A stretch of 32,660 nucleotides of DNA from a virus. Lineage: Duplodnaviria; Heunggongvirae; Uroviricota; Caudoviricetes. Below are positions 448 through 32,660 of the stretch, one piece after another. Positions within the stretch are counted from its first letter, which is position 1; each line of letters starts with the position of its first letter. The notes beneath the pieces were generated by a model. The model was given only the letters and a program-made list of their open reading frames with translations, did not search any database and was not told the origin of the DNA. The translations under genes and the position numbers were made by a program. The DNA lies in IMG/VR virus record IMGVR_UViG_2648501400_000018. One strand, written 5' to 3'.

Positions 448-801
448 CTAGCTGGCCTGCTGATTGTTAAGCCACTCCAGCCGGGCGACGCCTGTCTGGC
501 GTTGTACGAACTTATTTAACGCCGACAAACTGCCATCTCTGACCGTACCGCTGGAAGTCAGTTCCTGCCATAACGCGCGGATCATCGCAGACTGCTTATC
601 ATAGGAAGGAGGCTCTTTAGATGTGACTTTGAAGCCCTGTTTTTTCATCACAGCGAAAGCCTTAGCCAGTTGTGAGTCGCTCATTACCCGTAACGATTCA
701 CTGCCGCAGTGTGTTTTAAGTAATTGTCGATACGTAGCCTCATCCAGTCGCAGCTCTCGCCGGGCAACATGGATAACCCGCAATAATTGTGCTCTGTTCA
801 T
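448..801 (-). CDS. gemA: GemA-like regulatory protein (Mu gp16 family)
   Basis: 117 aa ORF beginning MNRAQLLRVIHVARRELRLDEATYRQLL, closely matching the remembered N-terminal pattern of Mu GemA; position immediately upstream of mor-like gene. Confidence 0.55.
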   Translation of the reverse strand: MNRAQLLRVIHVARRELRLDEATYRQLLKTHCGSESLRVMSDSQLAKAFAVMKKQGFKVTSKEPPSYDKQSAMIRALWQELTSSGTVRDGSLSALNKFVQRQTGVARLEWLNNQQAS

Positions 802-2423: not shown

Positions 2424-3548
2424 TCACACTCCTTTAATCACATCCGCATTCACCACCGGCACGCCGATATCAGCGGCCAGATTCATTGCGGCGATAACCA
2501 GATTCCCCAGCGCCAGCGGATAAAGCAGACTGACGTCACCGCGTCGGGATGAATTACATAATCGGGCGCGGATAGCATCGGCGGTGCTATCATCCAGCAC
2601 CTCGGAAACACCTTTCCCGGTACGCTGAAATTTGAACGCCAGAAACGCTTCCAGATAGTTATCCAGCGGCAGCAGTTCGACGACCTCGCAGCGCTGTACC
2701 ACTTCGCGCACCTCCTGATTACGTTCAGAAAGTTTCAGCTTTAGCTCCGGCTGGCCAATCAACACCACCGACAGCAGTTTTTTAAAGCCGTCCTCCAGCT
2801 CAAAGAACCGCTTCAAATGCTTGAGCGTCGGCACCGGTAGCGAGTGCGCCTCTTCAATAACCAGACAATGTGAGAACCCGGCGCGGGCCGACTCTTTCAG
2901 CACCCGGTGCAACTGGCGGTAACGGGCCTCCTGCGAGCGTTTGACGTTCTCCAGCGGTGCGATGGTGTTGATGATGGCCTCGGCAATCGACGCCGCTTTC
3001 AGAGTTTTGCCTTTGGCGTCGTTGTCTTCCATCGCAATGATGTACGGTTCGATGAGGATAACTGGCGCGTTTTCACGGTTGATGCGATCAGCCAGGTCAC
3101 GGCGTAGCGTGGTTTTCCCTGCGCCGGATTCGCCAACTACGGCGATAAATCCGCCATGTCGCGCGGTCTGATACAGTGCTTCACGCACGTAGCGGATATC
3201 TGGCGTGGTGAACACGTCGTCCGCACTCTGCATAACCTCATCGGCGAACGGGTCGCGGAACAACCCAAAATGCTTCTTCGCCGCTGGATTTAATACCTGT
3301 TTTGCCAGTAACATATTTTCGTCCTCACTGGATGATGTACCGGTGCAGGCGGTGGCCGCCGTCTGCGCCTCCTTCAGTTCAATACCTTTTTCTGCAAAAA
3401 ATGTGCTGATGCGCTCCCGTAGTTCTTCTGTTTTCGGCCACAGGCCGTGATTAACCATCTGCGCGATAACCGCTGCGGAAACTCCGGTAGCCTGTGCTAC
3501 TGCTGCCTGAGTGATGCCACGCTGGCGCAACTGTTGTTTAATCTGCAT
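2424..3548 (-). CDS. MuB-like transposition ATPase (AAA+ with N-terminal HTH)
   Basis: 374 aa ORF; N-terminal HTH (ITQAAVAQATGVSAAVIAQMVN); Walker A GESGAGKT; sits immediately downstream of the transposase as B follows A in Mu. Confidence 0.7.
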   Translation of the reverse strand: MQIKQQLRQRGITQAAVAQATGVSAAVIAQMVNHGLWPKTEELRERISTFFAEKGIELKEAQTAATACTGTSSSEDENMLLAKQVLNPAAKKHFGLFRDPFADEVMQSADDVFTTPDIRYVREALYQTARHGGFIAVVGESGAGKTTLRRDLADRINRENAPVILIEPYIIAMEDNDAKGKTLKAASIAEAIINTIAPLENVKRSQEARYRQLHRVLKESARAGFSHCLVIEEAHSLPVPTLKHLKRFFELEDGFKKLLSVVLIGQPELKLKLSERNQEVREVVQRCEVVELLPLDNYLEAFLAFKFQRTGKGVSEVLDDSTADAIRARLCNSSRRGDVSLLYPLALGNLVIAAMNLAADIGVPVVNADVIKGV

Positions 3549-3557
3549 AACTCCCCC

Positions 3558-5312
3558 TTAACCGCCGACTACGTTCAGTTGCACTCGGGCGGTAAGCTGC
3601 TGCGCGGCGGCGTCCAGTTCTTCTTCCGCCACGCCTTCTGGCCAGCGTTTCACCAGTTCCTGATACAGTGCGACGTTCCATTCCGGCAACCGTGCTTTCA
3701 GCGCCTTCGCCGCCTCGACGTGAGTCAGACGCCGGGCTTCAACGCGTGGAGCGCGTACCGGGGAATCCTGACCACGACGCGGCAGGAACGCGGGCAGTTC
3801 GCTGTCGGTGATGGGTTTATACGGGTCAAGCCTGCCGCCGAACGGCAGCGCCTTCGCTTTACGCGCCGCAGCCGCGTCCGTCTCGTTATCTGTTCCGGTA
3901 ACAATCTGCTCAATCTGTTTAGCCGCAGTCTGCGCGGGTGTATCGGCGTGGCGCTTGTGATTCTGGCCCAGCACCGCCGCGCCTTCGGCAAAGCCGTATT
4001 CGTCCTTGCGGACTTCCTCCACCAGGTGAAAATACTCGTGGCCATCGTCACCGATGAGCACTACCTGCGCGGCATCGCTGCGCCACGGATTGCGGGTGAT
4101 CATCAGTTTTTCACCCACCATCACATCTGGCACGGTGGAGACGTCGTATTCCGTACCCTGAAACGACACGCGCAGCTTCGGCGTTATCTTGCGGCTTTCC
4201 GGCGCGGCAACAGCCAGTTCGCGGCAGACCTCCACCGATGGCGCTTTGATAAGCTGCTGCGCGGTGATGGTCATCCAGACGTTACTACGCGACTTGCCGT
4301 GGCGGGTGTGAATCGCGGTGGCGTTGAAGTGCTGCCGCCACAGGCGCGCTTTGGCGTTCAGTTCCTCCAGGCTGTGAACCGGCTGGAACTTCAGCCCCGG
4401 TTCAAAGCGGCGTTCGATAATGTCGCGCGCCTTTTCCACCTGCCCGGTGGCGCGGGCGTTGTGGGCTTTATGCGCCACCACGTCAATGCCCAGCGAACGA
4501 CAGAGGTTCTTCGTCATAGCGGCGGTGTTGGCCGAGCCGGGGTCGAGATACAACATATGCGGCACGCCGTGGAGCACATCCGCGCCGCCGCGCTCCTGCA
4601 TGGCATTGATGAGAACGGAACAGAGATTTTCGCCAGACTCCGCCCCCATCACGTATTCAACGTAGATCCAGCCGCTGGTATGGTCGGTCAGTTCATAGCT
4701 CCATACCCGGTCACTGGCGATACGTTGCAGGTTCTTCGGCTTGTTTTTGTAGAACGTCGCGCTGTCCATCACCTGTAACCCGCGCTGTCCGTTGCTGAGG
4801 TAGTACAGCGTGCAGAGCGAGGCGTCGATTTCCCAGACGTGATTGGGGTGCAGACTGGCAAGCTCCGTCACTGGCGCGGGCTGGCTGAGTTGATCCGGGT
4901 GCAGGCCGTAGCCACGCAGCGCCCGGATGATGGTGCTTTCTGACAATGGCACCCACTCGCCGCTTTCCTCATCCAGCCGCCCGGCGTCAATCTCGCCGTT
5001 GGCGCGTAACATCTCCACGGCATCAATGACGGAATACAGGCGCTTGCCGTTCTTACGGGTGGCTTCCGTCAGCGTAGCGGAAATCATCACCGCCTCATCG
5101 CGGGTCAGCGCGGTTTTTCCGGCGTCGGTGCGGCGCTTGCGTTTATCGGTCACGGCAACCTCCTTTATTCTGCGTAACAGCGTGGCGCGGGACAGGCCAA
5201 GTTCCGCGCAGGCGGCAGTGTAGATTGCGCCGCGTGCGCCATGCCCGGCCTGCCGTGCAGCCTGAGCAACAGCAACTAAGCGTTCGGTCATGACGGCGCT
5301 CATGGTCAGCAT
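3558..5312 (-). CDS. DDE transposase, MuA-like
   Basis: 584 aa ORF; N-terminal DNA-binding region; candidate DDE residues in HVWEIDAS, YLDPGSANTA and a downstream Glu (GQVEKA); followed by the B-like ATPase. Confidence 0.75.
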   Translation of the reverse strand: MLTMSAVMTERLVAVAQAARQAGHGARGAIYTAACAELGLSRATLLRRIKEVAVTDKRKRRTDAGKTALTRDEAVMISATLTEATRKNGKRLYSVIDAVEMLRANGEIDAGRLDEESGEWVPLSESTIIRALRGYGLHPDQLSQPAPVTELASLHPNHVWEIDASLCTLYYLSNGQRGLQVMDSATFYKNKPKNLQRIASDRVWSYELTDHTSGWIYVEYVMGAESGENLCSVLINAMQERGGADVLHGVPHMLYLDPGSANTAAMTKNLCRSLGIDVVAHKAHNARATGQVEKARDIIERRFEPGLKFQPVHSLEELNAKARLWRQHFNATAIHTRHGKSRSNVWMTITAQQLIKAPSVEVCRELAVAAPESRKITPKLRVSFQGTEYDVSTVPDVMVGEKLMITRNPWRSDAAQVVLIGDDGHEYFHLVEEVRKDEYGFAEGAAVLGQNHKRHADTPAQTAAKQIEQIVTGTDNETDAAAARKAKALPFGGRLDPYKPITDSELPAFLPRRGQDSPVRAPRVEARRLTHVEAAKALKARLPEWNVALYQELVKRWPEGVAEEELDAAAQQLTARVQLNVVGG

Positions 5313-8371: not shown

Positions 8372-8448
8372 ACATGTTGTAAACAAAACAAAAAAGCGTG
8401 CAGACAGCACGCATTTACTATCTAACTCTACTGAAGGTTTCAGATTCT

Positions 8449-12651: not shown

Positions 12652-12954
12652 TGGACAAAGTACGCCGTGAGTCGATGCGCTGGAATCTGATGCTGGCGCT
12701 GAACAAGGCGCGGCCCTATACCAGCAATGAGCGATTTTTGCTGGCGGTGATGCAGGCGATTTACCCGGACGCCACCGGCGCTGGAGTTGCGGCGTGAGCT
12801 GGACTATCTGGCTGACCGCCGGATGGTGGATCTGGTGAAGGAACCCTCCGGCACCTGGTTCGGTGATTTGACCCGTCTCGGCGTTGATGTGGTCGAGTAC
12901 ACCGTGGACTGCGGCCCCGGCATCGCCCGCCCGCAAAAGTACTGGAGTGAATGA
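12648..12954 (+). pseudogene. Small late gene apparently split by a +1 frame change near 12775-12797
   Basis: ATG at 12648/12651 opens a 49-codon frame ending TGA at 12795-12797; the next frame is open from 12751 to a TGA at 12952-12954, and together they fill the gap to the gp27-like gene. Confidence 0.35.
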
Positions 12955-12955
12955 T

Positions 12956-13501
12956 ATGGCCCGCCGCAGCACCATCGACAAACTGCCCGAAGAGGTCAGG
13001 CGCTGGCTGGAACGGGCGCTGACCAACAGTGGCTTCAGCGGTTATGCCGAACTGGAGGAACTGATGCGTGATAAGGGCTACCTCATCAGCCGCAGCGCCA
13101 TTCACCGTTACGGCCAGAAGATTGAACGCCGATTTACCGCTATTCGCGCGGCCACCGAAGCCGCGCGGATGCTGACCGAGGGTGCCGCTGACGATCAGGA
13201 TGCCCGTTCGGAGGCGGTGATTGCGCTGATCCAGACTGAACTGTTTGAGTCTATCGTCCAGTTGCAGGAAGCCGAAGATGGCAAGATTGACCCGCAGGAG
13301 CGTGTGGCACTGCTGTCGAAGGTGGCGAAGAACGTTGCCACGCTGTCACGCGCCAGCGTCAACCTGAAGAAGTTTCAGCAGGAAGTCCGGGCGAAAGCGG
13401 AAGCTGCCGCCAGCAACGCTGAGAAGATCGCCCGTAAAGGTGGTCTGTCTGCGGAGTCCGTGCAGGCGCTACGCCGCGAGATTCTGGGGATCGCCTCATG
13501 A
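12956..13501 (+). CDS. Mu gp27-like protein (putative small terminase / DNA-binding packaging protein)
   Basis: Internal ATG gives MARRSTIDKLPEEVRRWLERALTNSGFSGYAELEELMRDKGYLISRSAIHRYG, matching the remembered N-terminal pattern of Mu gp27; directly upstream of the large terminase. Confidence 0.6.
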   Translation: MARRSTIDKLPEEVRRWLERALTNSGFSGYAELEELMRDKGYLISRSAIHRYGQKIERRFTAIRAATEAARMLTEGAADDQDARSEAVIALIQTELFESIVQLQEAEDGKIDPQERVALLSKVAKNVATLSRASVNLKKFQQEVRAKAEAAASNAEKIARKGGLSAESVQALRREILGIAS

Positions 13502-15024
13502 CCGGGTTAGCGCCAGTTCTCCAGGATACCTCCGGGCTTGATGCGCCGGTGGCGCTGATGCCCTACCAGCAACGCTGGGTGGCGGATGACTCCCCGCTGA
13601 AGGTCATCGAGAAAAGCCGACGCACCGGCATCACCTGGGCAGAGGCGTCTGATAACGTCCTGACCGCCGCCTCATCCGCCGCCGCTGGTGGTATGAACGT
13701 CTATTACATCGCCTACAACCAGGATATGACCATTGAATATATTCAGGCGTGTGCAATGTGGGCGCGGGTGTTCAACTATGCAGCCAGCGAGATAGAGGAA
13801 GGATTCTGGGACGATGAAGATGATGAGAAGCACATCAAGACGTACACTATTCGGTTCCCGGAATCTGGCTTTCGTGTGGTGGCATTATCCAGCCGCCCGT
13901 CTAACCTGCGTGGCCGTCAGGGGATCATCGTTGTGGATGAAGCCGCATTCCATGAGCAGTTACGCGAGCTGCTGAAAGCGGCGCTGGCGATGCTGATCTG
14001 GGGCGGCAAGGTGCGGGTGATCTCCACGCATGATGGCGACGATAACCCCTTTAACGAACTGATTAACGATATCCGCGCCGGGCGTCGGGCGGGCAGTATT
14101 CATCGGATAACGTTTCGTGAAGCCATCGCTGAAGGATTGTATCGCCGTGTCTGCCTGCGCACCGGGCGTGAATGGACACCGGAAGGTGAAAGCGACTGGA
14201 TGGCATCGGTGTACCGCTTCTACGGCGACGGGGCCAGCGAGGAACTGGACTGCGTGCCTGCACATTCCGGCGGCGCATGGTTATCCCGCGCGTTGATTGA
14301 GTCGCGCATGTCACCGGACACGCCGGTACTGCGTTTTACCTGTCCGCCCGGTTACGAGCTGAAACCTGACCATATCCGTGAATCAGAAACAAATGACTGG
14401 CTGACGACCCATCTGCTGCCATTGCTGGAGGCTCTGCCTGCAGAGGCTACCTCTTATGTTGGTCGTGACTTTGGTCGTAGTGGTGATTTATCTATCGACG
14501 TGCCGCTGATCCAGTTGAAGAACCTTGTGCGCCGGGTGCCGTTTATTCTGGAGCTGCGGAACGTACCTTTTAAACAGCAAGAGCAAATCACCTGGTATCT
14601 GCTGGACAGACTGCCCCGTCTGATGGGGGCCGCCTTTGATGCGCGTGGCAACGGTGCGTATCTGGCGGAGTACGCTATGCAACGGTATGGAGCAAGTCGG
14701 GTGCAGCAGGTGATGTTAAGCGAAGGCTGGTATCGGGATCATATGCCGCCGGTTAAAGCGGAGCTGGAAGATGGCACGCTGGATGCATTGCCCAGAGATG
14801 AAGATACGCTCAACGATCTGCGGGCTGTTCAGGTGATTAACGGCGTGCCGCGCATCCCCGATACCCGCAGCAAAGCTAAAGCCGACGGTGGTCAGCGTCA
14901 CGGTGAAGCAGCGATAGGAACGGCACTGGCATATTACGCCAGCCGCGAACTGAATAAAGGCCCGGTGACGGTGAACTCCCGCCGCCGTCGCCAGTCCGCC
15001 CGATTACTGGAGAACTATAACTGA
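13498..15024 (+). CDS. Terminase large subunit (Mu gp28-like)
   Basis: 508 aa ORF; position between gp27-like and portal genes; ATPase-like N-terminal and acidic nuclease-like C-terminal regions; ATGA overlap with the upstream gene. Confidence 0.7.
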   Translation: MTGLAPVLQDTSGLDAPVALMPYQQRWVADDSPLKVIEKSRRTGITWAEASDNVLTAASSAAAGGMNVYYIAYNQDMTIEYIQACAMWARVFNYAASEIEEGFWDDEDDEKHIKTYTIRFPESGFRVVALSSRPSNLRGRQGIIVVDEAAFHEQLRELLKAALAMLIWGGKVRVISTHDGDDNPFNELINDIRAGRRAGSIHRITFREAIAEGLYRRVCLRTGREWTPEGESDWMASVYRFYGDGASEELDCVPAHSGGAWLSRALIESRMSPDTPVLRFTCPPGYELKPDHIRESETNDWLTTHLLPLLEALPAEATSYVGRDFGRSGDLSIDVPLIQLKNLVRRVPFILELRNVPFKQQEQITWYLLDRLPRLMGAAFDARGNGAYLAEYAMQRYGASRVQQVMLSEGWYRDHMPPVKAELEDGTLDALPRDEDTLNDLRAVQVINGVPRIPDTRSKAKADGGQRHGEAAIGTALAYYASRELNKGPVTVNSRRRRQSARLLENYN

Positions 15025-16499
15025 TGCCACGCGGAATTTACGTTACCCCTACCGAGTTTGTTTCATTCAGCGAGCCGACCAAAAATCTGTCAGAGCAAAT
15101 CGCCGTTCGTTCGCGCTCCATTGATTTCTACGGGCTGGGAATGTACCTGCCCAATCCCGATCCCATTCTTAAAGCGCAGGGGCGCGATATCAAAATCTAC
15201 CGCGAACTGCGTAGCGATCCCTTAGTTGGCGGCTGTATTCGTCGACGCAAGGCAGCGGTCAAGGCGCTGGAGAACGGCGTCGAACGTGGCAATGCCACGG
15301 CGCGGGTGTTTCGCTTTGTGCGTGATCTGTTTGATGATTTGGATATTTCACGCATTACGGGCGAGATGACCGACTCTGTTCTCTACGGCTATCAGCCATG
15401 TGAACTGATGTGGACACGCGGCGGTAAATCCTGGGCGGTGTCTGATGTGGTGGGTAAGCCTCCGGAGTGGTTCCAGTTCGATATGGAAAACCGCCTGCGC
15501 TTTCGTGCTCGCAATGCCGGGCTGGAGGGCGAGCTGACGCCGCCGTATAAGTTCCTGTTGCCGCGTCAGGATGCGACCTACGATAACCCGTATGGCTTCC
15601 CTGATTTGTCGATGTGCTTCTGGCCCGTCACCTTCAAAAAAGGCGGCATGAAGTTCTGGGTGCGCTTTGCCGAGAAGTACGGCTCGCCGTGGGTTGTTGG
15701 CAAGCATCCGCGCGGTACGTCGCAGGGCGAGATTAACCAGTTACTGGATTCGCTGGAGGCGATGATTGAGGACGCCGTGGCCGCTATCCCGGACGATTCT
15801 TCTGTAGACATCAAAGAGGCGGCAGGTAAAGCCGACAGCAGCGATATCTACCAGAACCTGATCACCCTGTCGCGCGGTGAGATTTCTATTGCGCTGCTGG
15901 GGCAGAATCAGACCACTGAAGCCAGCGCCAACAAAGCCTCGGCGCAGGCCGGGCTGGAGGTGACTGATGATATCCGTGACGGTGATGCATCCATTGTAAC
16001 CAGCGCGTTTAACCAGCTTATCCGCTGGATTGTGGAACTGAACTTCGGTGCGGTGGACTGCCCTGTGTTCCGTATGTGGGAGCAGAAAACGGTTGATGAG
16101 GTGCAGGCCGGACGCGACCAGAAACTGTCGCAGTCAGGCGTCAAGTTCACCCCGCAATACTGGAAGCGCGAGTATCAGTTACAGGATGGCGATATCGACG
16201 AAACCCCGGCACCTGCATCGTTGGCGTTCGCTGAGGCGGTAGCCGCAGACGTGGCTGCGCAGGAGCTGCTGGACGCGGCGCTGGATGAACTGATGACCAG
16301 CGGCAAGCTGGACGATACGCTGACGCCGGTGCTGGCTCCCTTGTTTGCGCGGGTACAAAACGGCGTCGCGCCAGCGGTGTTGATGGGCGAACTGGCGGAG
16401 CTGTACCCGCAGATGAACACCGACGACCTTACAGAACGGCTGGCGCGTGTGTTGTTTGTGGCGAATATCTGGGGGCGGCTCAATGAGCGTCACGAGTAG
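15024..16499 (+). CDS. Portal protein (Mu gp29-like)
   Basis: 491 aa ORF following the large terminase; size and synteny typical of Mu-like portal proteins. Confidence 0.7.
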   Translation: MPRGIYVTPTEFVSFSEPTKNLSEQIAVRSRSIDFYGLGMYLPNPDPILKAQGRDIKIYRELRSDPLVGGCIRRRKAAVKALENGVERGNATARVFRFVRDLFDDLDISRITGEMTDSVLYGYQPCELMWTRGGKSWAVSDVVGKPPEWFQFDMENRLRFRARNAGLEGELTPPYKFLLPRQDATYDNPYGFPDLSMCFWPVTFKKGGMKFWVRFAEKYGSPWVVGKHPRGTSQGEINQLLDSLEAMIEDAVAAIPDDSSVDIKEAAGKADSSDIYQNLITLSRGEISIALLGQNQTTEASANKASAQAGLEVTDDIRDGDASIVTSAFNQLIRWIVELNFGAVDCPVFRMWEQKTVDEVQAGRDQKLSQSGVKFTPQYWKREYQLQDGDIDETPAPASLAFAEAVAADVAAQELLDAALDELMTSGKLDDTLTPVLAPLFARVQNGVAPAVLMGELAELYPQMNTDDLTERLARVLFVANIWGRLNERHE

Positions 16500-17304
16500 T
16501 GAGTTAGCCTATTGCCTGAGTCTGCCGCCAAAGCGGGCCATCGGCTATCTGGAGTCCAAAGGCTATACCCTGTCGTGGGACTGGGAGGAGGTCTGGCAGG
16601 AAGCTCACGCCCACGCTTTTACCGTCGCGAAGGTGACAAAGCTGGATATACTGGAAGATATCCGCCGCGCGCTGGAGCGGTCACTGGCGGAGGGCAAAAC
16701 CGGCGCGTGGTTTCGTAAGGAACTGGAGCCGGTGTTGAAAGAGAAAGGCTGGTGAGGCGAGAAAGAAATCACCGACCCGGACACCGGGGAAGTGACCATC
16801 ATCCAGCAAGGCAGTTCCTGGCGACTTGATACCATCTACCGCACCAATATGACGGTGGTTTACAGTGCCGGGCGCTGGGCCGAGCAGATGGAAAACGTCG
16901 ACGATCGTCCATATGGGATGTACTGTGCCATTTGCGACAACCGCACCCGTCAACCCCACCTCCTGCTGCATCAGATGGTCATGCGTCTTGATGATCCATT
17001 CTGGCAGTCATTCTACCCGCCTAACGGCTGGGGGTGCCGCTGTACAGTGATAGCAATGACTGAGGCGGATGTCCGCCGCCGCAGGCTGAAAATCACGGCC
17101 TCCGGCGATGCGCTGGGGGAAACGATGAAACTGATATCGATGCAAACCGGAGAATTGCAACCGGTGGCCACCTTTACTATTGGCAATACGATTATCACCC
17201 CAGATGCGGGCTGGTCATACGCGCCGGGCGCGGCGTACCGCCCGGACTTAGCCAAATACCAGGGCGTGCTCGCGCCGCTGGCGCAACAGGAGCTGGCACC
17301 ATGA
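16483..17304 (+). pseudogene. Head morphogenesis protein F-like (Mu gp30 / SPP1 gp7 family) interrupted by an in-frame TGA at 16753-16755
   Basis: ORFs 16447-16755 and 16792-17304 are in the same frame, separated by one TGA (…KEKGW*GEKEITDPDTGE…) with 12 open codons between; the downstream part carries the Phage_Mu_F-like motif DNRTRQPH...DDPFW...PPNGWGCRCT. Confidence 0.5.
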
Positions 17305-18015: not shown

Positions 18016-19107
18016 ATGCCCGCACCTATTCATATCTTTAAATCCGGCACGCATACCGCGATGAACGGTACGCAGATGCCGTTCACAGCGGCGGAGCTGG
18101 CCGCCTGTGCAGCCGCTTATGATCCGGCAGTGCATGAAGCGCCGCTGGTTATCGGTCATCCGACGCATGACGCCCCGGCTTACGGCTGGGTAAAGTCGTT
18201 AACCGCCTCGCAGGATGATTTGCAGGCCGAGCCTGACCAGGTTGATCCGGCCTTTGCCGAACTGGTCGGAGCCGGACGTTACAAGAAAATCTCCGCCTCG
18301 TTCTATCTGCCGGACTCCCCTAATAACCCAAAGCCCGGCGCGTTGTATCTGCGTCACGTGGGTTTTCTCGGTGCGCAGCCGCCTGCCGTGAAAGGACTGA
18401 AAGCGGTGGAGTTCAGCGAGCAGGAGGAAGGCGTGGTTGAGTTCGCCGACTGGGGACTGGCAACCAGCGCCGGAATGTTTGCCCGCCTGCGCGATTTCCT
18501 GATCAGCAAGTTCAGCCTCGACGAGGCCGACAGCGTTTTGCCGTCCTGGCAAATCGATGCGCTACGCGATGAGGCGCAGCGTGATGACCCGAAACCCGAT
18601 CCGGCTTTCAGTGAGCCAAAACCTGAACCAAAGGAGAAATCCGTGACTGAAGAAGAAATTAAGGCGATGCGCGAAGAGAATGCCCGCCTGAAAGCCGACG
18701 CCGCTGACCGCGCGAAGGCTGACGTAAAACGCCGTGCCGACGAGCTGCACGCCACCAACGTCTCCTTTGCCGAGGAGCTGGTGACCGGCGGCAAGCTGAC
18801 GCCTGCGGCTAAAGGCGTGGTTGTCGCGCTGCTGGATGAAGTAAGCAAAGGCGATGCGCCGGTGGAGTTCGCCGAGGGCGATGTGAAGAAACCACTGGCG
18901 ATGGCCTTTAAAGAACTATTGACAGGCGCTGCGCCGGTGCTGGATTTCAGCGAAGTTGCCAGCAAAGACCGCGCCAACCGCGACGTCGTGCGCACCGTCG
19001 ATTTTGCCGACGCCGACCCGGAGCAACTGGCGGTGCATAACAAGGCCGTAACGCTGGCGAAGGCCGAAGGCATCAGTTACGAAGCCGCCGTTAAACGCTG
19101 CTTATAA
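18016..19107 (+). CDS. Mu I-like prohead protease/scaffold protein
   Basis: 363 aa ORF; N-terminal PLVIGHPTHDAPAYGWV region and charged K/E/A-rich coiled-coil-like C-terminal half, as in Mu I (protease with in-frame scaffold). Confidence 0.6.
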   Translation: MPAPIHIFKSGTHTAMNGTQMPFTAAELAACAAAYDPAVHEAPLVIGHPTHDAPAYGWVKSLTASQDDLQAEPDQVDPAFAELVGAGRYKKISASFYLPDSPNNPKPGALYLRHVGFLGAQPPAVKGLKAVEFSEQEEGVVEFADWGLATSAGMFARLRDFLISKFSLDEADSVLPSWQIDALRDEAQRDDPKPDPAFSEPKPEPKEKSVTEEEIKAMREENARLKADAADRAKADVKRRADELHATNVSFAEELVTGGKLTPAAKGVVVALLDEVSKGDAPVEFAEGDVKKPLAMAFKELLTGAAPVLDFSEVASKDRANRDVVRTVDFADADPEQLAVHNKAVTLAKAEGISYEAAVKRCL

Positions 19108-19118
19108 AGGAGAAAAGA

Positions 19119-19370
19119 ATGGCAAATCATTTACAGGGTAAACGCGTCGTTAACCCTATCCTGACCACCGTTGCGCGTGGCTATAAAAACGCGGCGTTTA
19201 TCGGGGAGAAGATTTTCCCGGTGGTGGAGATGGATAAAGAAGGCGCAACGGTGCCGACGTTCGGCAACGGCGTGTTTGCCGTCTATGAGACGAAACGCGC
19301 CGTGGGTGCTGACAGTAACGTCATGATCCGTGAGAAAACCGGTAAAGCTGGACGCAGTGACATATATTGA
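19119..19370 (+). pseudogene. Short ORF of uncertain identity joined out of frame to the sheath gene (possible 5' remnant of the major capsid gene, or an aberrant sheath N-terminus)
   Basis: 83 aa ORF in the position where Mu-like phages carry the major head gene T; terminates inside the start of the sheath reading frame (overlap 19330-19370). Confidence 0.3.
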
Positions 19371-20100
19371 TGCCCCCATCGGCACCACGTTCAGCCAGGT
19401 GCTTGCAGGTCGTGGCGCATCCGGGACGATCAATTTTAACACCAGCTCCGAACGCGCCCGTCTGTGCTATCCGCATGTCAAGGTGTACGACGCCGCCTCC
19501 GACAGCGAACGGCTGGAGCCGCTCTCGTCGCGCGCCGCTGGCCTGCGTGCCAAAGTGGACCTGGATAACGGTTTCTGGTGGAGCAACTCCAACCAGGAAA
19601 TCCTCGGCATTACTGGTGTGGAACGTTCGCTGTCGGCGATGATTGATGACCCGCAAAGCGAGGTGAACCAACTGAACGAAAACGGCATCACCACCGTTTT
19701 CAACAGTTACGGCACTGGGATGCGACTGTGGGGCAACCGTACCGCCGCCTGGCCAACCGTGACCCATATGCGCAACTTTGAAAATGTGCGGCGTACCGGG
19801 GATGTGATTAACGAGTCGATCCGTTATTTCAGTCAGCAGTATATGGATATGCCGATTAACCAGGCGTTGATTGATGCGCTGACCGAGTCAGTGAATGCCT
19901 ACGGGCGCAAACTGATTGGCGACGGCGCGCTGCTCGGTTTTGAATGCTGGTATGACCCGGCGCGTAACGAACAGACCGAGCTGGCCGCTGGCCATCTGTT
20001 GCTGAGTTACAAATATACGCCGCCTCCGCCGCTGGAACGGCTGACGTTTGAGACGGAAATCACTTCGGAATATCTGGTTAATCTGGAAGGTAAACGCTGA
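19330..20100 (+). CDS. Tail sheath protein, P2 FI-like C-terminal portion (N-terminal region missing or frameshifted)
   Basis: AAGLRAKVDLDNGFWW, LNENGITTVFNSYGTGMRLWGNRT and YKYTPPPPLERLTFETEITSEYLVNL match the remembered C-terminal two-thirds of P2 FI; reading frame opens only at 19330. Confidence 0.6.
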   Translation: MRKPVKLDAVTYIDAPIGTTFSQVLAGRGASGTINFNTSSERARLCYPHVKVYDAASDSERLEPLSSRAAGLRAKVDLDNGFWWSNSNQEILGITGVERSLSAMIDDPQSEVNQLNENGITTVFNSYGTGMRLWGNRTAAWPTVTHMRNFENVRRTGDVINESIRYFSQQYMDMPINQALIDALTESVNAYGRKLIGDGALLGFECWYDPARNEQTELAAGHLLLSYKYTPPPPLERLTFETEITSEYLVNLEGKR

Positions 20101-21382: not shown

Positions 21383-24070
21383 GTGGCTGCTGAATTTTCA
21401 ATCGGTGTGGTGATTAAAGGGATGATGGCGGGTTCGCTGTTGTCGGCTATTGGCGGAACGCAAAAAACCTTAAAAGGGCTGGAATCCACCACCGCACGCC
21501 TGAAAAAGCAACATGCAGATATGACGCAGGAACTGGCGCGTAATACCAATGGCAGCACCGAAGCCACGGCGCGACTAAACCGCGAGTTACAGAGTGTGGG
21601 CAGGACGCTGGAGAACCTGAAACTGCGGCACGATAACTTAGCTAACGCTGCCAGCCGGAGCGCTGCGCTGCGCTCCCAGCGCATGGAACTTTACGGACGC
21701 GGTCTGGAGACGATGGCGCAGGCAAAGGTAGTGTCGTCCCCCGTTGTTGCCTCGGTAAAACAGTATGCCGCCTTTGAGTCCGGGCTGCGTGATATCGCCG
21801 TGACGGGGGATCTGGACAGTAAGCAGGAGGCAGCAATTGGCAATGCCATTCGTCAGGCGGCAGGTCAGGTTAACCAGATGCAGGAGACGTTGCTTGGCGG
21901 CGTGAATCAACTGGTGGCTGATGGCATGAATCCAGAGAAAGCGGCAAATATGATTGGCCTGCTGGGTAAAACAGCCACCGCCACCGGCGCTGATATGACC
22001 GACCTGGCGAAAATGACCTATGCCTTCAGCGACGCGCTAAAAATCGGCGATGGCAAGGAGATGGAAGAGGCCTTTGCGCTGGCCGCTGCGGGTGCCAAAA
22101 CCGGCTCTTTTGAGCTGAAAGATATGGCAAAAGCGTTGCCGACGCTGGCAAAAAGTTTTGCCGCCAAAGGTATTACTGGCCCGGAGGCGATCAAGGAAAT
22201 TATTGCTTCACTGGAGCTGGGAAAAGGTGCAGGTTCGGCGGAGGAAGCCGTCACCAACATGACCAACTGGATGGGGGCGATGACGCGCGGTGACACTATC
22301 AAGAAATATGAAAAAGCGGGCGTGAAATATGATGCCTCCATGCAGGATTATGTTGCCAAGGGGTATTCGCAGTACGAAGCCTCGCTGATGATTGCCAATG
22401 AGTTTATTGACGGGAAAGGTGCGGCCTTTAAAAAGCAATGGGAGGCTGCGGGGGCAAAAGGCGACGGTGAAGCACAGCAAAAATTGATGGAATCCTTTGG
22501 TCTGTCAGAAATCTTTACCGATATCCAGACCGTCAACCATTTGCTGTCAATGCGTCAGAACTGGAGTCAGTACCAGACTAAAAAAACACAGATGGCGACC
22601 CCGGAAGCGCAAAAGACGCTGGATACCGACTTCGCAAAACAGGGCGATACGCTGGAGGCTCGTTGGCGAAAATCACAGGTTGCGCTGAATGAAGTGGCGT
22701 TGAGTATCGGCAGTTCGTTGTGCCCGGCGCTGATATCGCTGATGGATACCGTGGTGCCGTGGCTTGATGCGCTGGGGAAATGGGCAGCGGCGAACCCGGA
22801 AATTATCGCCGGGATCGGGAAAGCGGCGGCGGGATTTTTTGTTATTAAAAGTTCGATGATTGGCACCCAGATTGTGGCCAACTATTTATTTTCCACCTGG
22901 GCGGGCGGCGCAAAGGCGATTGCATTACTGGCTGCAAAAGGTACGCAGTTAAAAGCTGCCTTTTCCGTTGGTGGTAAACTGGCAGGCATCACTAAGTTGT
23001 TCGGCTCACTGGCGCGTGGCGCGTTGTCACTGGGTAAAATACTCGGTGGCGGACTCCTGCGCGGTCTGATGATGGCAGGACGCGCGGTGTTGTTTTTGGG
23101 CCGGGCGCTGATGATGAATCCCATCGGTCTGATCATCACCGGCATCGCCGTGGCCGCGTATCTGATTTACCGCTACTGGGGGCCGATTTCCGCTTTCTTT
23201 AAGCGGCTGTGGGCGCAGGTCACGGTAGCGTTTCGTGGGGCGTGGAGCGGCATCAAAGGTATCTGGAGTGGTGTGTCGGGCTGGTTCTCTGGTATCTGGG
23301 CGCAAATCAAAACCGCGTTCAGCGGCGGGATTGGCGGCGTGGCAAAGCTGATTACCAACTGGTCGCCGCTGGGCCTGTTCTATAAAGCCTTTGCCGGGGT
23401 GATGAAATACTTCGGTATTGATATGCCGAAAAACTTTACCGATTTTGGCGGCAATCTGATTAACGGTCTGGTGAACGGTATCGGCAATGCGCTGACTGCC
23501 GCGAAAGAGACGGTCGTTAACTTTGGTAACTCGATTTCAGGCTGGTTTAAGGAGACGCTGGGGATTCATTCCCCCAGCCAGGTGTTTGCCGGGTTCGGCG
23601 ACAATATCGCGCAAGGGGCCGCTATCGGTATCAACCGCACCGCCCCGGATGCGATTTCCGCCAGCCAGCAGATGGCACAGGCATTGATTCCACCCGCACC
23701 GGGTATCGTTGTTCCGGGCATTGCGGTGTCGGCCATTCCCCGACAGTCAGACGTTATGTTACATGGTGCTATGGGTGCGGCGCTGTCACAACCAAAACCA
23801 TTGCCGCCGATAACCCCCGGTGTCGCAGTCCCTGCTGTTCCTGAACTGCCGAAAAGTACCGCGCCAGCCGCCAAAGGCCGCAATGCCAGTGCGCACGTAC
23901 CGGGGCAGTCGTCCGGGGTGAATGTCACCTTCGCGCCGCAAATCACTATCAAAGGCGCAGCCTCAACGACCGAAGGTGAAATCACCTCGGCGCTGAAACT
24001 GAGCCTGCACGAACTGGAGAAGATGATGGAGCGGATTATGGCGCGTCGTGAACGCCGGGAGTATGCGTAA
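21383..24070 (+). CDS. Tail tape measure protein
   Basis: 895 aa ORF downstream of the chaperone/frameshift pair; long helical A/K/Q-rich regions and G/W-rich hydrophobic repeats (GIWSGVSGWFSGIWAQIKTAFSGG) typical of tape measure proteins. Confidence 0.75.
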   Translation: MAAEFSIGVVIKGMMAGSLLSAIGGTQKTLKGLESTTARLKKQHADMTQELARNTNGSTEATARLNRELQSVGRTLENLKLRHDNLANAASRSAALRSQRMELYGRGLETMAQAKVVSSPVVASVKQYAAFESGLRDIAVTGDLDSKQEAAIGNAIRQAAGQVNQMQETLLGGVNQLVADGMNPEKAANMIGLLGKTATATGADMTDLAKMTYAFSDALKIGDGKEMEEAFALAAAGAKTGSFELKDMAKALPTLAKSFAAKGITGPEAIKEIIASLELGKGAGSAEEAVTNMTNWMGAMTRGDTIKKYEKAGVKYDASMQDYVAKGYSQYEASLMIANEFIDGKGAAFKKQWEAAGAKGDGEAQQKLMESFGLSEIFTDIQTVNHLLSMRQNWSQYQTKKTQMATPEAQKTLDTDFAKQGDTLEARWRKSQVALNEVALSIGSSLCPALISLMDTVVPWLDALGKWAAANPEIIAGIGKAAAGFFVIKSSMIGTQIVANYLFSTWAGGAKAIALLAAKGTQLKAAFSVGGKLAGITKLFGSLARGALSLGKILGGGLLRGLMMAGRAVLFLGRALMMNPIGLIITGIAVAAYLIYRYWGPISAFFKRLWAQVTVAFRGAWSGIKGIWSGVSGWFSGIWAQIKTAFSGGIGGVAKLITNWSPLGLFYKAFAGVMKYFGIDMPKNFTDFGGNLINGLVNGIGNALTAAKETVVNFGNSISGWFKETLGIHSPSQVFAGFGDNIAQGAAIGINRTAPDAISASQQMAQALIPPAPGIVVPGIAVSAIPRQSDVMLHGAMGAALSQPKPLPPITPGVAVPAVPELPKSTAPAAKGRNASAHVPGQSSGVNVTFAPQITIKGAASTTEGEITSALKLSLHELEKMMERIMARRERREYA

Positions 24071-24976
24071 TGTTTGCCGTACTGGGGGATATTGAGTTTG
24101 AGGTGGTGACCTACTGGGACGGCTTTGATGCGTCGTTTGGCATGGATTACGCCGAGCACGCACGCATCGAAGGCAAACCGGGGTTGCAGTTTATCGGCGA
24201 AAAGCTGGATGAAGTCAGCATCAGTCTGGTGTTCCATGACCACTATTGCCAGCCGGATGTTGAACTGGCGCGGCTGCGTGGCGCATCAGGCGCTGGCGCT
24301 GGTGTTCGGCAACGGGGACTATCGCGGCTGGTTTGTGGTAACCGATATTCGGGCGACCAGCCAGCAGACCGATGGCCTCGGTAATGTGCAGGCGTTAAGT
24401 GCAGAGCTGTCGCTGAAGGAGTACATCGGCGATCCGAAAAATCCCCTGACGCCACCGGCTGTGTCCGGGGACGATCCGAATATCGATTCGTGGTCTGACG
24501 ATGCCGACGACAGTTTTTCCGGCAGCGATATGTTCGACGGCCTAAGCGATATTACCGACGGGCTGGATGCGGCATCGGACGCGCTGGATGCCGCAGAGCA
24601 GGCGTTCGATGAGGCAGTGTCGTGGGCGGAAGATGTGGTGGAGCAAGTTGAAGATGCGATTGATGACGTACTTTCACCGCTGGAGGACGTTCTCAATGAG
24701 GTGTTATCACCACTCGATGAGGTGATGCAGGCGCTGGAGGGTATCATGGGCGGCGGCGTACTGACCGATGCTCTCGGCGAGGTCGGGCAAGTCGCCTCGC
24801 AGATTTACGATGAAATCAGCAGTACGTTGACCGGGCTTGACGGTATCACCCCCGACAACTTTGCCGATCTGTTCTCGCAGGCACTGGACGTGGTGCGCAA
24901 CGGTCAGTCATTGATGGAAGCGTGTTCTCCCGCCGTTAGCAGGCTGGCGGCGGCAATCATTACCAGGAGCGTGTGA
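24070..24976 (+). pseudogene. Tail protein gpU-like / Mu DNA-circulation (N)-like gene with a +1 frame change near 24277-24290
   Basis: Frame A (24070-24384) has a gpU-like N-terminus up to ...DVELARLR; frame B (24125-24976) continues the family pattern from ...HQALALVFGNGDYRGWFVVTDI and carries an acidic C-terminal region. Confidence 0.5.
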
Positions 24977-28282: not shown

Positions 28283-28985
28283 GTTACCGCTTCAACCGCC
28301 GCTCGCCGGGGATGAACGCTTTACCCGGCTGGCAAATCTTGCCGCTGAACGCTTCGCACAACTCGATCTGACCGCGCTTCTGATTTATCTGGTGGATGCC
28401 ACGGCGCTGCCGTCGCTGGCAGAACAGTTCCACGTTCAGGGGCTGGAAGGCTGGCTGTTTGCCCGCGATGAGCGACAAAAGCGCGATCTGATCAAGCAGG
28501 CCATTGAGCTGCACCGCTATCGCGGTACGCCGTGGGCAGTGCGTCAGGTACTGAAGATTCTGGCGTTGGACGGCGATATCAGCGAGTGGTTTGAGTATGG
28601 CGGTAAGCCGTACTTTTTCCGCATGGATGTCACGCTTGAGACGCGCGGGCTGACTGAGGATGAATTTAACGCGCTGATTGTGCTGATCCATGAGTACAAG
28701 AACGTCCGCTCAAAGCTGGAGATGCTGACTATCTGGCTGATTAACCAGAGCCAGATCCCGGTTATCGCCAGTGCTGTTCAGGGCGGCGAGATTGCTACCG
28801 TTCTGCCGTGGATTGCGGAGAGCGTGAGTCAGTCGTCTGCGGTTTATCTGGCGACGGAGTGTTTGAGTGCAGAGGTGGTAACGGTGTTGCCTCCGCTGCA
28901 TGGCAATGTTGAGCAGACCAGCGTTATGAGTGTTGGAGCGGGCTGCTGGAGTATTGAGTTTGTCACTGTTTACCCGGAGGAGTAA
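28275..28985 (+). CDS. Tail protein I-like (baseplate)
   Basis: 236 aa ORF between the J-like gene and the tail fibre gene, overlapping both, as P2 gpI. Confidence 0.6.
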   Translation: MDKLPLQPPLAGDERFTRLANLAAERFAQLDLTALLIYLVDATALPSLAEQFHVQGLEGWLFARDERQKRDLIKQAIELHRYRGTPWAVRQVLKILALDGDISEWFEYGGKPYFFRMDVTLETRGLTEDEFNALIVLIHEYKNVRSKLEMLTIWLINQSQIPVIASAVQGGEIATVLPWIAESVSQSSAVYLATECLSAEVVTVLPPLHGNVEQTSVMSVGAGCWSIEFVTVYPEE

Positions 28986-30685
28986 TGGCGAGTGAATTTT
29001 TTACCATTTTAACCGCCGCTGGCCGCGCGAAGATTGCTGCGGCGCTGGCGGAACAAAAGCAGATAGTGCTGCAAACAATGGTCGTTGGCGACGGCGGCGG
29101 GCAGTATGCCGAACCGAAAGAGAGCCAGACAAAGGTGGTGCGTGAAGTCTGGCGCGGGTCACTGAATACGCTGAAAATCGCCCCGGAAAACCCGGCGTGG
29201 GTGATTGCCGAGGCGGTACTGCCGGAAGCGAAAGGCGGCTGGTATATCCGCGAGGTGGGATTGCTGGATATGGACGGCGTGCTGATTGCCATCGGCAAGT
29301 TCCCGGAAACCTATAAGCCGAAGCTGCCTGCCGGGGCCAGTAAGCAAATTGTGATCCGCGCTGTGATGGAAGTGACGAACGCGGCGGCGGTAACGCTGAT
29401 GGTTGATCCGTCGCTGGTGATGGCAACGGTAGATTATGTGGACTCCAGTATTGAAGAGCACGAAAGATCACATAATCACCCGGACGCAACGCTGACGCAG
29501 AAAGGCTTTACGCAGCTTAACAGCTCCACCAATAGCACGCTGGAAACGCAGGCAGCAACGCCGAAGGCGGTGAAGGCGGCGATGGATAAGGCGAATGAGG
29601 CACTGGAAAAAGCTGGGGCTGATAAAGCGCATAAACATCCGTGGGCCGATATTACCGGGGTGCCGGATGGGACAACGGCGCAGAAAGGGGTTGTGAAGCT
29701 TAATAGCTCAACGAACAGTACCAGTACGACGGAGGCTGCGACACCGAGTGCGGTTAAGGCGGCATATGACCTGGCGAATGGTAAGGCGGCGGGGAGCCAT
29801 AAACATGCCTGGGGCGATATTACCGGGGTACCGGATGGCACTACGGCGCAAAAAGGGATCGTAAAGCTCAACAGCGCGACGAACAGCACCAGTACTACCG
29901 AAGCGGCCACGCCCGGCGCAGTGAAGGCGGCGTATGACCTGGCGAACGGGAAAGCGGCTTCCAGCCATACTCACGCATGGAGTCAGATTACCGGCGTACC
30001 GGATGCAACTACAGCGCAAAAAGGGGTTGTGAAGCTTAATAGCGCGACGAACAGTACCAGTACGACTGAAGCCGCAACGCCGAGCGCGGTTAAGGCGGCG
30101 TATGACAAGGCGAATACAGCAATCTCCAGTTTTGCTCTTTTCACGTCGAATGGGACGTTTACGGTGCCAGTCGGGGTAACGAAAGTGATGGTGGAAATGA
30201 TTGGAGGTGGAGGTGGTGGCGGCGGCGGTGGTGTGGGTGGTGGTGAGCGAATTGGTTATCCGACAGCAGGTAAACCATCACTTTTTGTTCAAGGGATTGT
30301 TGCTGTGAACTCTGGACAAAATGTAACCGTCACAGTCGGCGGAGGCGGTGTTGGGGGATCATCAAAAGTAGATACTGGTGGTGGTTCGATGACCGGGAGT
30401 AATGGGTACGCCGGAGGAAACTCAATTTTCTTAACGCTCACTTCTGTTGGTGGTAGCGGCGGCGGCGGTGCATTGCCAGATTCTGGTCCTGGCAACGCAT
30501 TAAATGAGCCAGGTTCTGATTCAACGCATGGCTATGGCGGGGGGACTAAGTATAACTCGCAGAAAAATGCCGTAGGTTATGGTTCGAGTGGTGCGGCTGG
30601 TACCTCTAAAGGCGTCAGAACTGTTGAAGGGGACTCTACAGCAGGTGGCAATGGTGCTTCAGGTTTTGTCAGAATATGGTGGTAA
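28985..30685 (+). CDS. Tail fibre protein (P2 gpH-like N-terminus, internal tandem repeats, glycine-rich low-GC C-terminal domain)
   Basis: N-terminus (FFTILTAAGRAKIAAALA...VVGDGGG...VWRGSLN...WYIREVGLLDMDGVLIAIGKFPETYKP) matches the conserved gpH anchor domain; about four repeats of AQKG[VI]VKLNS[AS]TNSTSTTEAATP.AVKAAYD; poly-Gly C-terminus. Confidence 0.75.
   Translation: MASEFFTILTAAGRAKIAAALAEQKQIVLQTMVVGDGGGQYAEPKESQTKVVREVWRGSLNTLKIAPENPAWVIAEAVLPEAKGGWYIREVGLLDMDGVLIAIGKFPETYKPKLPAGASKQIVIRAVMEVTNAAAVTLMVDPSLVMATVDYVDSSIEEHERSHNHPDATLTQKGFTQLNSSTNSTLETQAATPKAVKAAMDKANEALEKAGADKAHKHPWADITGVPDGTTAQKGVVKLNSSTNSTSTTEAATPSAVKAAYDLANGKAAGSHKHAWGDITGVPDGTTAQKGIVKLNSATNSTSTTEAATPGAVKAAYDLANGKAASSHTHAWSQITGVPDATTAQKGVVKLNSATNSTSTTEAATPSAVKAAYDKANTAISSFALFTSNGTFTVPVGVTKVMVEMIGGGGGGGGGGVGGGERIGYPTAGKPSLFVQGIVAVNSGQNVTVTVGGGGVGGSSKVDTGGGSMTGSNGYAGGNSIFLTLTSVGGSGGGGALPDSGPGNALNEPGSDSTHGYGGGTKYNSQKNAVGYGSSGAAGTSKGVRTVEGDSTAGGNGASGFVRIWW
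29477..30118 (+). repeat. Tandem coding repeats (about 168-183 bp period, about 3.7 copies) inside the tail fibre gene
   Basis: Repeat units start at about residues 171, 232, 288 and 344 of the fibre protein; nucleotide-level near-identity is visible between units. Confidence 0.6.
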
Positions 30686-31886: not shown

Positions 31887-32660
31887 ATGAAAACATTACC
31901 CATTATTCCGTGGCCCGGCGGTAAGCGTCGTCTGGCCAAAAAGTTATTACCGTTATTTCCTGAGCACCAGTGTTATGTAGAGCCATTCTGCGGCGGTGCA
32001 GCCTTGTATTTCATGAAGGAGCCGGTTGAAGCTGAAGTCCTGAACGATATCAACGGCGAACTGGTGAATCTGTACCGTGTGGTTAAAAATCATCTTGAAG
32101 AGTTTGTGCGCCAGTTCAAGTGGGCGTTGAGCAGCAGGCAGATTTTTGAATGGTCGAAAATGACCATCCCGGAGACGCTAACTGATATTCAGCGTGCAGC
32201 GCGGTTTTATTATCTCCAGAAGCAATCATTCGGAGGGAAAGTGGAATCACAGACGTATGGAACGGCGACCACTTCTGCACCACGGCTTAATCTGCTAAGG
32301 CTGGAAGAGGAGTTGAGCGCCGCCCATTTGCGGCTATCACGCACGTTTGTAGAACATTTACCGTGGCGTACCTGCATTGAGAAGTATGATCGCCCGCACA
32401 CACTGTTCTATTGCGATCCCCCGTATTGGGGAACGGAGGGCTACGGTGTTGAATTTGGACTGGAGCAGTACACCCAACTTGCAGAGTTGGCCAGAACGAT
32501 AAAAGGCAGGATGTTGATCAGTGTGAACGATATCCCGGAGATGCGTGAAACCTTTGCGGACTTGTCGATTGATACGGTAGATATTCGCTATACGTTGAGC
32601 GGTGGGCCTAATGCTAATCGCTCGAAAGTCAGCCGTGAGCTGGTCATTCGTAACTGGTAA
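31887..32660 (+). CDS. Dam-family (D12-class) N6-adenine DNA methyltransferase
   Basis: N-terminal SAM-binding pattern PGGKRRL...CYVEPFCGGAALYF; catalytic DPPY in LFYCDPPYWG; C-terminal RMLISVND; arrangement parallels E. coli Dam. Confidence 0.75.
   Translation: MKTLPIIPWPGGKRRLAKKLLPLFPEHQCYVEPFCGGAALYFMKEPVEAEVLNDINGELVNLYRVVKNHLEEFVRQFKWALSSRQIFEWSKMTIPETLTDIQRAARFYYLQKQSFGGKVESQTYGTATTSAPRLNLLRLEEELSAAHLRLSRTFVEHLPWRTCIEKYDRPHTLFYCDPPYWGTEGYGVEFGLEQYTQLAELARTIKGRMLISVNDIPEMRETFADLSIDTVDIRYTLSGGPNANRSKVSRELVIRNW

Follow-up and report, generated by a model that had tools for sequence, protein, structure and literature searches.

An interrupted F-like gene in a BcepMu-type prophage

The IMG/VR virus record IMGVR_UViG_2648501400_000018, a stretch of 32,660 nucleotides analysed here in full and called the window, is identified by its predicted genes as a BcepMu-type (Bcepmuvirus-like) transposable prophage in Escherichia. 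It holds a gene for an F-like minor head or head morphogenesis protein (Mu gp30, BcepMu gp30; Pfam family PF04233), recognized by translation, alignment and Pfam search at 16483..17304 on the plus strand, as are all other features described in this section. The gene is 822 bp long and would encode 273 amino acids if codon 91 were decoded, but codon 91 is a premature TGA (16753..16755), which the alleles of relatives trace to TGG (Trp91) through a G to A change at 16755. The codon before it is TGG for Trp90 (16750..16752), the first Trp of a GWWG motif that is invariant by sequence and alignment, and the codons around the site, ...AAA GGC TGG TGA GGC GAG..., are read and translated in a single frame throughout. 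The N-terminal open reading frame (ORF), 16483..16755, runs for 90 amino acids and then meets the TGA; it is called as a 90-residue gene in public assemblies. From the TGA to the next possible start lie 12 open codons (16756..16791, GEKEITDPDTGE), ordinary F coding sequence that matches the homologues residue for residue in the alignment. The C-terminal ORF, known from the ORF list and from Pfam, begins at GTG 16792 and continues for 170 amino acids to 17304.

Directly 5' of F is the portal gene (PF06074, 15024..16499), and directly 3' is a gene for a G-like virion morphogenesis protein (PF05069, 17301..17837), both supported by ORFs and public gene calls. The ATG of the G-like gene overlaps the natural TGA stop of F at 17302-17304. 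Within the head module, F comes right behind the portal gene, and BcepMu, PhiKM and the E. coli A35 prophage have this order too. Homologues and public gene calls agree on ATG 16483 as the true start of F, which gives a 17-nt overlap with the end of the portal gene.

When the two parts are joined, the translation aligns end to end with single proteins of 272-278 amino acids, with full-length identities of 74% to the E. coli A35 prophage, 70% to PhiKM and 59% to BcepMu gp30. The GWWG motif is the same in all three, and it is the second Trp that the TGA replaces; ten of the ten 273-residue proteins fetched from the closest 90%-identity cluster carry GWWG as well. A protein search of 5.8 billion sequences returned 798 homologues at E <= 1e-30, and among the best 120 of these the lengths ranged from 227 to 446 amino acids, typically about 270-285, with no half-gene homologue. 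Forty proteins make up the closest 90%-identity cluster. Among the 15 listed, those of 273 residues come from E. coli, E. albertii and Salmonella, and the 90- and 170-residue fragments of the TGA allele itself are the sole short ones.

An earlier reading of the DNA letters without database searches (the sequence-only reading) had proposed one F-like gene split by this in-frame TGA with 12 open codons between the parts, and the sequence, the end-to-end alignment and Pfam all agree with it. Its span of 16447-17304 has the correct end, but its start does not stand, GTG 16447 being merely the mechanical start of the upstream ORF. It had suggested that homologues be aligned at this codon, where Trp is indeed invariant in the column, and had named naturally divided homologues as the finding that would speak against a broken gene; neither the best 120 of the 798 matches nor the 15 cluster members listed include one.

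The protein of the intact allele, P0125, which is identical to the conceptual F protein of the window apart from Trp91 and Gly201, matches PF04233 (Phage_Mu_F) over residues 59-190 with a score of 85.4 bits, against a cut-off of 29.6. Codon 91 thus falls within the domain and not at a domain boundary. The C-terminal fragment from the window scores 77.4 bits and covers profile positions 33-112 of 112, and the N-terminal 90-residue fragment alone gave no Pfam match above the cut-off. Relatives carry the whole domain in one uninterrupted frame of 273 amino acids, as the window does not. With the conserved Phage_Mu_F domain interrupted by the stop, the gene is regarded as a pseudogene.

A naturally split gene was rejected on the lengths of the homologues among the matches listed and on the location of the stop inside the Pfam domain. 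A related proposal is that ribosomes restart at GTG 16792, with two polypeptides of 90 and 170 amino acids together doing the work of the gene. This GTG is in frame, 36 nt past the stop, and the ORF that it opens still reaches 77 bits against PF04233. The split lies inside the domain, however, leaving the C-terminal fragment without profile positions 1-32, and the 12 conserved codons would be lost. The sole Shine-Dalgarno-like run before the GTG, on reading of the sequence, is a GGGG at 16786-16789, spaced just 2 nt from it, and no two-gene homologue occurs among the matches listed. Restart is accordingly considered very improbable.

Alleles of F in near-identical prophages

DNA loci of related prophages were retrieved through exact-protein look-ups and are cited here by L-numbers. 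Comparison of the 822-bp gene in the window, L004-L009 and L018-L021 showed just two variable positions, 16755 and 17083. Codon 91 is TGG and position 17083 is G in L018-L021; the codon is TGA with the G retained in L005-L008; and TGA is joined by A at 17083 in the window, L004 and L009. The second change, GGG to AGG (Gly201Arg, plus strand), lies 3' of the premature stop and is specific to the window lineage, all other loci having G there, the remaining TGA carriers included. Over stretches of 5-18 kb, the loci of this series share 99.6-99.95% identity with the window. Taking all loci in which the codon was read, TGG is present in L017-L022 and L024, and TGA in L004-L009, L023 and L025. Over 17 kb, L023 (contig JHSW01000008.1 of GCA_001266175.1) matches the window at 100% identity and is presumably its source or a twin. 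Outside a single near-clonal group, TGG is the codon in every relative examined. These comparisons demonstrate, at the level of sequence, that the ancestral codon was TGG and that the mutations are nested in order. The TGG-to-TGA origin thought plausible in the sequence-only reading is thereby borne out twice over, by the invariant GWWG and by prophages about 99.8% identical to the window that have TGG, with G for A at 16755.

The TGA was found in seven independent samples: five Logan assemblies of separate sequencing runs (SRR19671056, SRR10748677, SRR12769711, SRR31898987 and SRR14860202) and two NCBI assemblies (GCA_001266175.1 and GCA_043286325.1). A sequencing or assembly error, in favor of which stands the prior that single-base errors occur, was rejected on the recurrence of the same base in these seven, and its probability is negligible.

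In 5426 complete E. coli genomes, megablast detected two partial matches and no more, both distant (84%), and matches in the phage collection were at about 70% identity or lower; the close relatives were reached through the exact-protein look-ups. An exact-pattern scan for either TGA or TGG at the site in a one-genome-per-species collection returned no match; as the species representatives lack the prophage, the scan is uninformative on the allele.

Insertion sites of intact and interrupted copies

Transposable phages insert nearly at random, and junctions with host DNA hence test for movement of the prophage after the stop arose. A left junction beside phoH, at which ...CTGATTA meets GAAAGCACAC, is common to L023 and L025, both with TGA, and to L014, L015 and L027; identity among the host flanks of the copies at phoH is 99.8-99.96%. 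A single assembly, GCA_002509785.1, supplies both L027 and L019, contigs broken at prophage position 8384-8392 with a 9-nt overlap. With L027 at the phoH junction and its sister contig L019 carrying TGG, an intact-F copy therefore occupies the identical site, near-identical to the TGA copies of L023 and L025.

A second left junction, near pdeL/betT, holds other TGG copies (L013, L022 and L024), and a third is seen in L026, whose F allele falls outside coverage; the right junctions of L010, L011 and L012 all differ. Three host junctions per side across genomes are consistent with transpositional integration, and the prophage family is, or recently was, mobile. Two of the family's three observed left junctions thus hold TGG copies. 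TGA carriers, of which L023 and L025 are tied directly to a junction, were not encountered at any second site. Since TGA is seen only at phoH, and TGG both at that same site and elsewhere, the mutation most probably arose in a resident prophage. There is no sign of phage movement after the TGA arose.

A recent spontaneous nonsense mutation in a resident, decaying prophage, leaving F an ordinary pseudogene, is very probably what these observations record. In this sequence of events, a G to A change at 16755 would have converted TGG (Trp91) to TGA in the single-copy F-like gene of a prophage adjoining phoH in an Escherichia chromosome, the mutation occurring in place with the prophage already integrated. 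Termination at codon 91 would yield a 90-residue fragment with the Phage_Mu_F domain cut, the TGA allele would have been inherited vertically in a small clone, and later inactivating lesions would have been added in the branch of the window. The shared insertion site and the additional lesions are directly visible; we infer that F function was lost and that selection on the gene was absent after the mutation.

Several points qualify this account. Only L023 and L025 are tied directly to the phoH site, L004 and L005 being placed there by contig geometry, as each of their contigs stops about 2.67 kb to the left of the prophage, like that of L015. In L005 and L025 the TGA is the sole obvious inactivating lesion in the stretches read, and for these copies it is again loss of function that we infer. 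Residual F function may persist: UGA readthrough would insert the wild-type Trp, and F-type proteins are minor virion components.

Two contig breaks were noted among these loci. The prophage of GCA_002509785.1 is interrupted at 8384-8392, where the 9 shared nucleotides resemble a target-site duplication and the contigs end 72 nt into unrelated sequence; the interruption is probably an inserted mobile element. Separately, four independent short-read assemblies, those of L006, L007 and L008 (TGA) and of L021 (TGG), have contigs broken at one and the same base, window position 13893 in TerL, the contig ends carrying no foreign sequence. This shared break could reflect a second related prophage diverging there, or an insertion.

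Readthrough and recoding at the TGA

In E. coli K-12 reporters, Trp-tRNA-Trp, in competition with RF2, reads through UGA at measured rates of about 2% (37 C) and about 4% (25 C) (PMC10570021). The low-level readthrough that the sequence-only reading considered possible is so only in the sense that UGA in E. coli is generally leaky (about 2% in that study), with no sign of selection for it or use of it here. A trace of full-length F is plausible, and nothing indicates that readthrough is selected.

A stronger version would make the stop leaky and tolerated, with near-cognate Trp-tRNA-Trp restoring wild-type F at the percent level, which would suffice for a head protein of low copy number, TGA-only phages viable and the allele nearly neutral. 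Besides the measured rates, it has in its favor that the ancestral residue is Trp, hence readthrough yields the authentic protein, and that L005 and L025 are without another obvious knock-out in the regions covered. Lysogens of the L005 and L025 type would then carry a phage kept viable by a self-correcting nonsense mutation, with the original residue reinserted. No TGA carrier, however, has appeared at a second site, as against TGG copies at two of the three left junctions, and independent knock-outs have gathered in the lineage of the window and L004 and in L007. No stimulatory structure accompanies the stop. E. coli K-12 carries a weak RF2 allele, and readthrough is probably lower in wild isolates. 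In the window copy, the major head and sheath genes are deleted, and readthrough is therefore moot. We judge a leaky, tolerated stop to be improbable, and it is just as doubtful that TGA-only lysogens are viable by such self-correction.

Programmed recoding, whether by selenocysteine, a dedicated readthrough signal or an alternative genetic code, would be consistent with the codon being TGA and the frame remaining open beyond it. The ancestral codon, however, specifies Trp rather than Cys or Sec, homologues likewise have Trp, and the stop lacks conservation, being absent from relatives outside the near-clonal TGA group. No Rfam family reached its gathering score in the whole window, and folding of the 86 nt around the TGA (16745-16830) was no stronger than that of shuffled sequence (minimum free energy z = -1.0), with no significant downstream hairpin. 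Selenocysteine insertion and structured readthrough were rejected on these Rfam and folding results. TGA also serves as the normal terminator of the same gene at 17302-17304, and the named hosts, Escherichia and Salmonella, use the standard bacterial code. Because near-identical relatives have TGG, programmed recoding is in effect refuted, and of the explanations considered it has the least claim to credence.

Gene content and further lesions of the prophage

The early region of the prophage lies on the minus strand, with Mor-like (20-427), GemA-like (448-801), MuB-like (2424-3548) and MuA-like (3558-5312) genes. The late region, on the plus strand, includes TerL (13498-15024) and, beyond the portal, F and G-like genes, a protease/scaffold gene (18016-19107) and, after it, genes of a contractile tail. 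The window closes with a late gene for a Dam-type (PF02086) DNA methyltransferase (31887-32660). Its exact 257-residue sequence occurs in 479 blocks of a public collection, versus 34 for P0125, and is thus far more widespread. Both prophage ends lie outside the window, the left about 150 nt before position 1 (...CTACTGATTA, then host) and the right about 85 nt past 32660 (...GCGCGGCTTTA, then host). Gene content and order are BcepMu-like, and the insertion sites are varied, as in Bcepmuvirus-type phages.

Lesions of the window lineage were judged against all close relatives and the outgroups L016 and L017. The largest is a deletion of 2834 bp with its junction at 19343..19344, established from junction sequences and from the undeleted loci L005, L006 and L018, in which the full sheath has 471 amino acids. 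Lost with it are the major head gene beyond about codon 75, three genes of cement-like, gp36-like and gp37-like type, a gene for a 76-residue protein and the first ~220 sheath codons, and the deletion fuses an 83-residue major head remnant ORF (19119-19370) to the 3' part of the sheath gene (19330-20100). The GemA-like gene has a nonsense codon at 448..450 on the minus strand, CAG (Gln118) to TAG with the change at position 450, giving 117 amino acids versus 134; comparison of L023 with L022, L024 and L025 restricts it to the window lineage. Restricted likewise is one extra G at 12777..12778 (plus strand), a frameshift that reduces a late-region gene from 101 amino acids, as in L005, to 49, as in L004. 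Comparison with relatives revealed an 11-nt deletion (ACGCAATGGTG) at 24277..24278 (plus strand), a frameshift in a gpU-like tail gene whose product has 305 amino acids in relatives and which in the window is split into ORFs 24070-24384 and 24125-24976. Gene calls show a 9-nt in-frame deletion at 28387..28388 (plus strand) in a gpI-like baseplate gene, 236 amino acids versus 239 in relatives. The TerL substitution Ala422Glu occurs in the window lineage only, and megablast comparison found no indels in the tail-fibre gene (29545-29797).

The prophage is thus defective through several independent inactivating lesions, namely the 2834-bp deletion, the GemA nonsense codon, the +1 frameshift, the 11-nt deletion and the F nonsense codon, among which the F stop is the earliest visible hit in the window lineage. 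The window copy cannot make virions whatever happens at the TGA.

Other members of the family have lesions of their own. L007, a TGA carrier, has independently lost 187 nt of the protease/scaffold gene (window 18673-18859) between 11-nt direct repeats. Independent decay is common in this prophage family. As separate observations, tape-measure Gln330 is changed to TAG in L018 and L012 (window 22370), Gln180 of the MuA-like transposase is changed to TAG in L026 (window 4775), and in L014 a large deletion joins the prophage early region to the putP side.

Annotation and comparison with known systems

In annotation, the two ORFs 16483-16755 and 16792-17304 should be combined into a single pseudogene and not stand as two genes, and the region should be given as a defective BcepMu-like prophage. 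The nested series, from an intact copy through the F nonsense mutation to a missense change, deletions and frameshifts, in copies about 99.8% identical and at one chromosomal site, offers a modestly useful dated example of how prophage decay begins in Escherichia. The data give no evidence of any new mechanism of recoding.

The A1 coat extension of phage Qbeta is produced by programmed UGA readthrough, and the F stop resembles it in being a UGA that tRNA-Trp can decode. The F stop differs in that it is not conserved and interrupts a domain rather than extending a protein, with no logic of a short product plus a long one. The resemblance to the Mu F (gp30)/SPP1 gp7 family (PF04233), and to BcepMu gp30 in particular, is far closer, with a Pfam match, 59% identity, a position between portal and G-like genes, and 273 versus 278 amino acids; the window copy departs from these in its stop at codon 91 and in Gly201Arg, as a pseudogene and not a working member.

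With Bcepmuvirus-type prophages such as PhiKM and Klebsiella phage KP12, the window shares the gene order TerL, portal, F, G, protease/scaffold, major head and contractile tail, and an early region on the opposite strand with MuA-like and MuB-like genes. DNA identity in the F region is about 70% to both. As with transposable phages, the prophage is found at varied chromosomal junctions in different genomes. Unlike PhiKM and KP12, the window copy is defective, with a 2.8-kb head/tail deletion, two nonsense codons and two frameshifts. It is most like the decaying (cryptic) prophages of E. coli, in which several independent lesions have accumulated on a vertically inherited copy and sister copies carry differing lesions. 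From these it shows no notable difference, and it represents an early stage of decay, at which the copies are still about 99.8% identical to intact ones.

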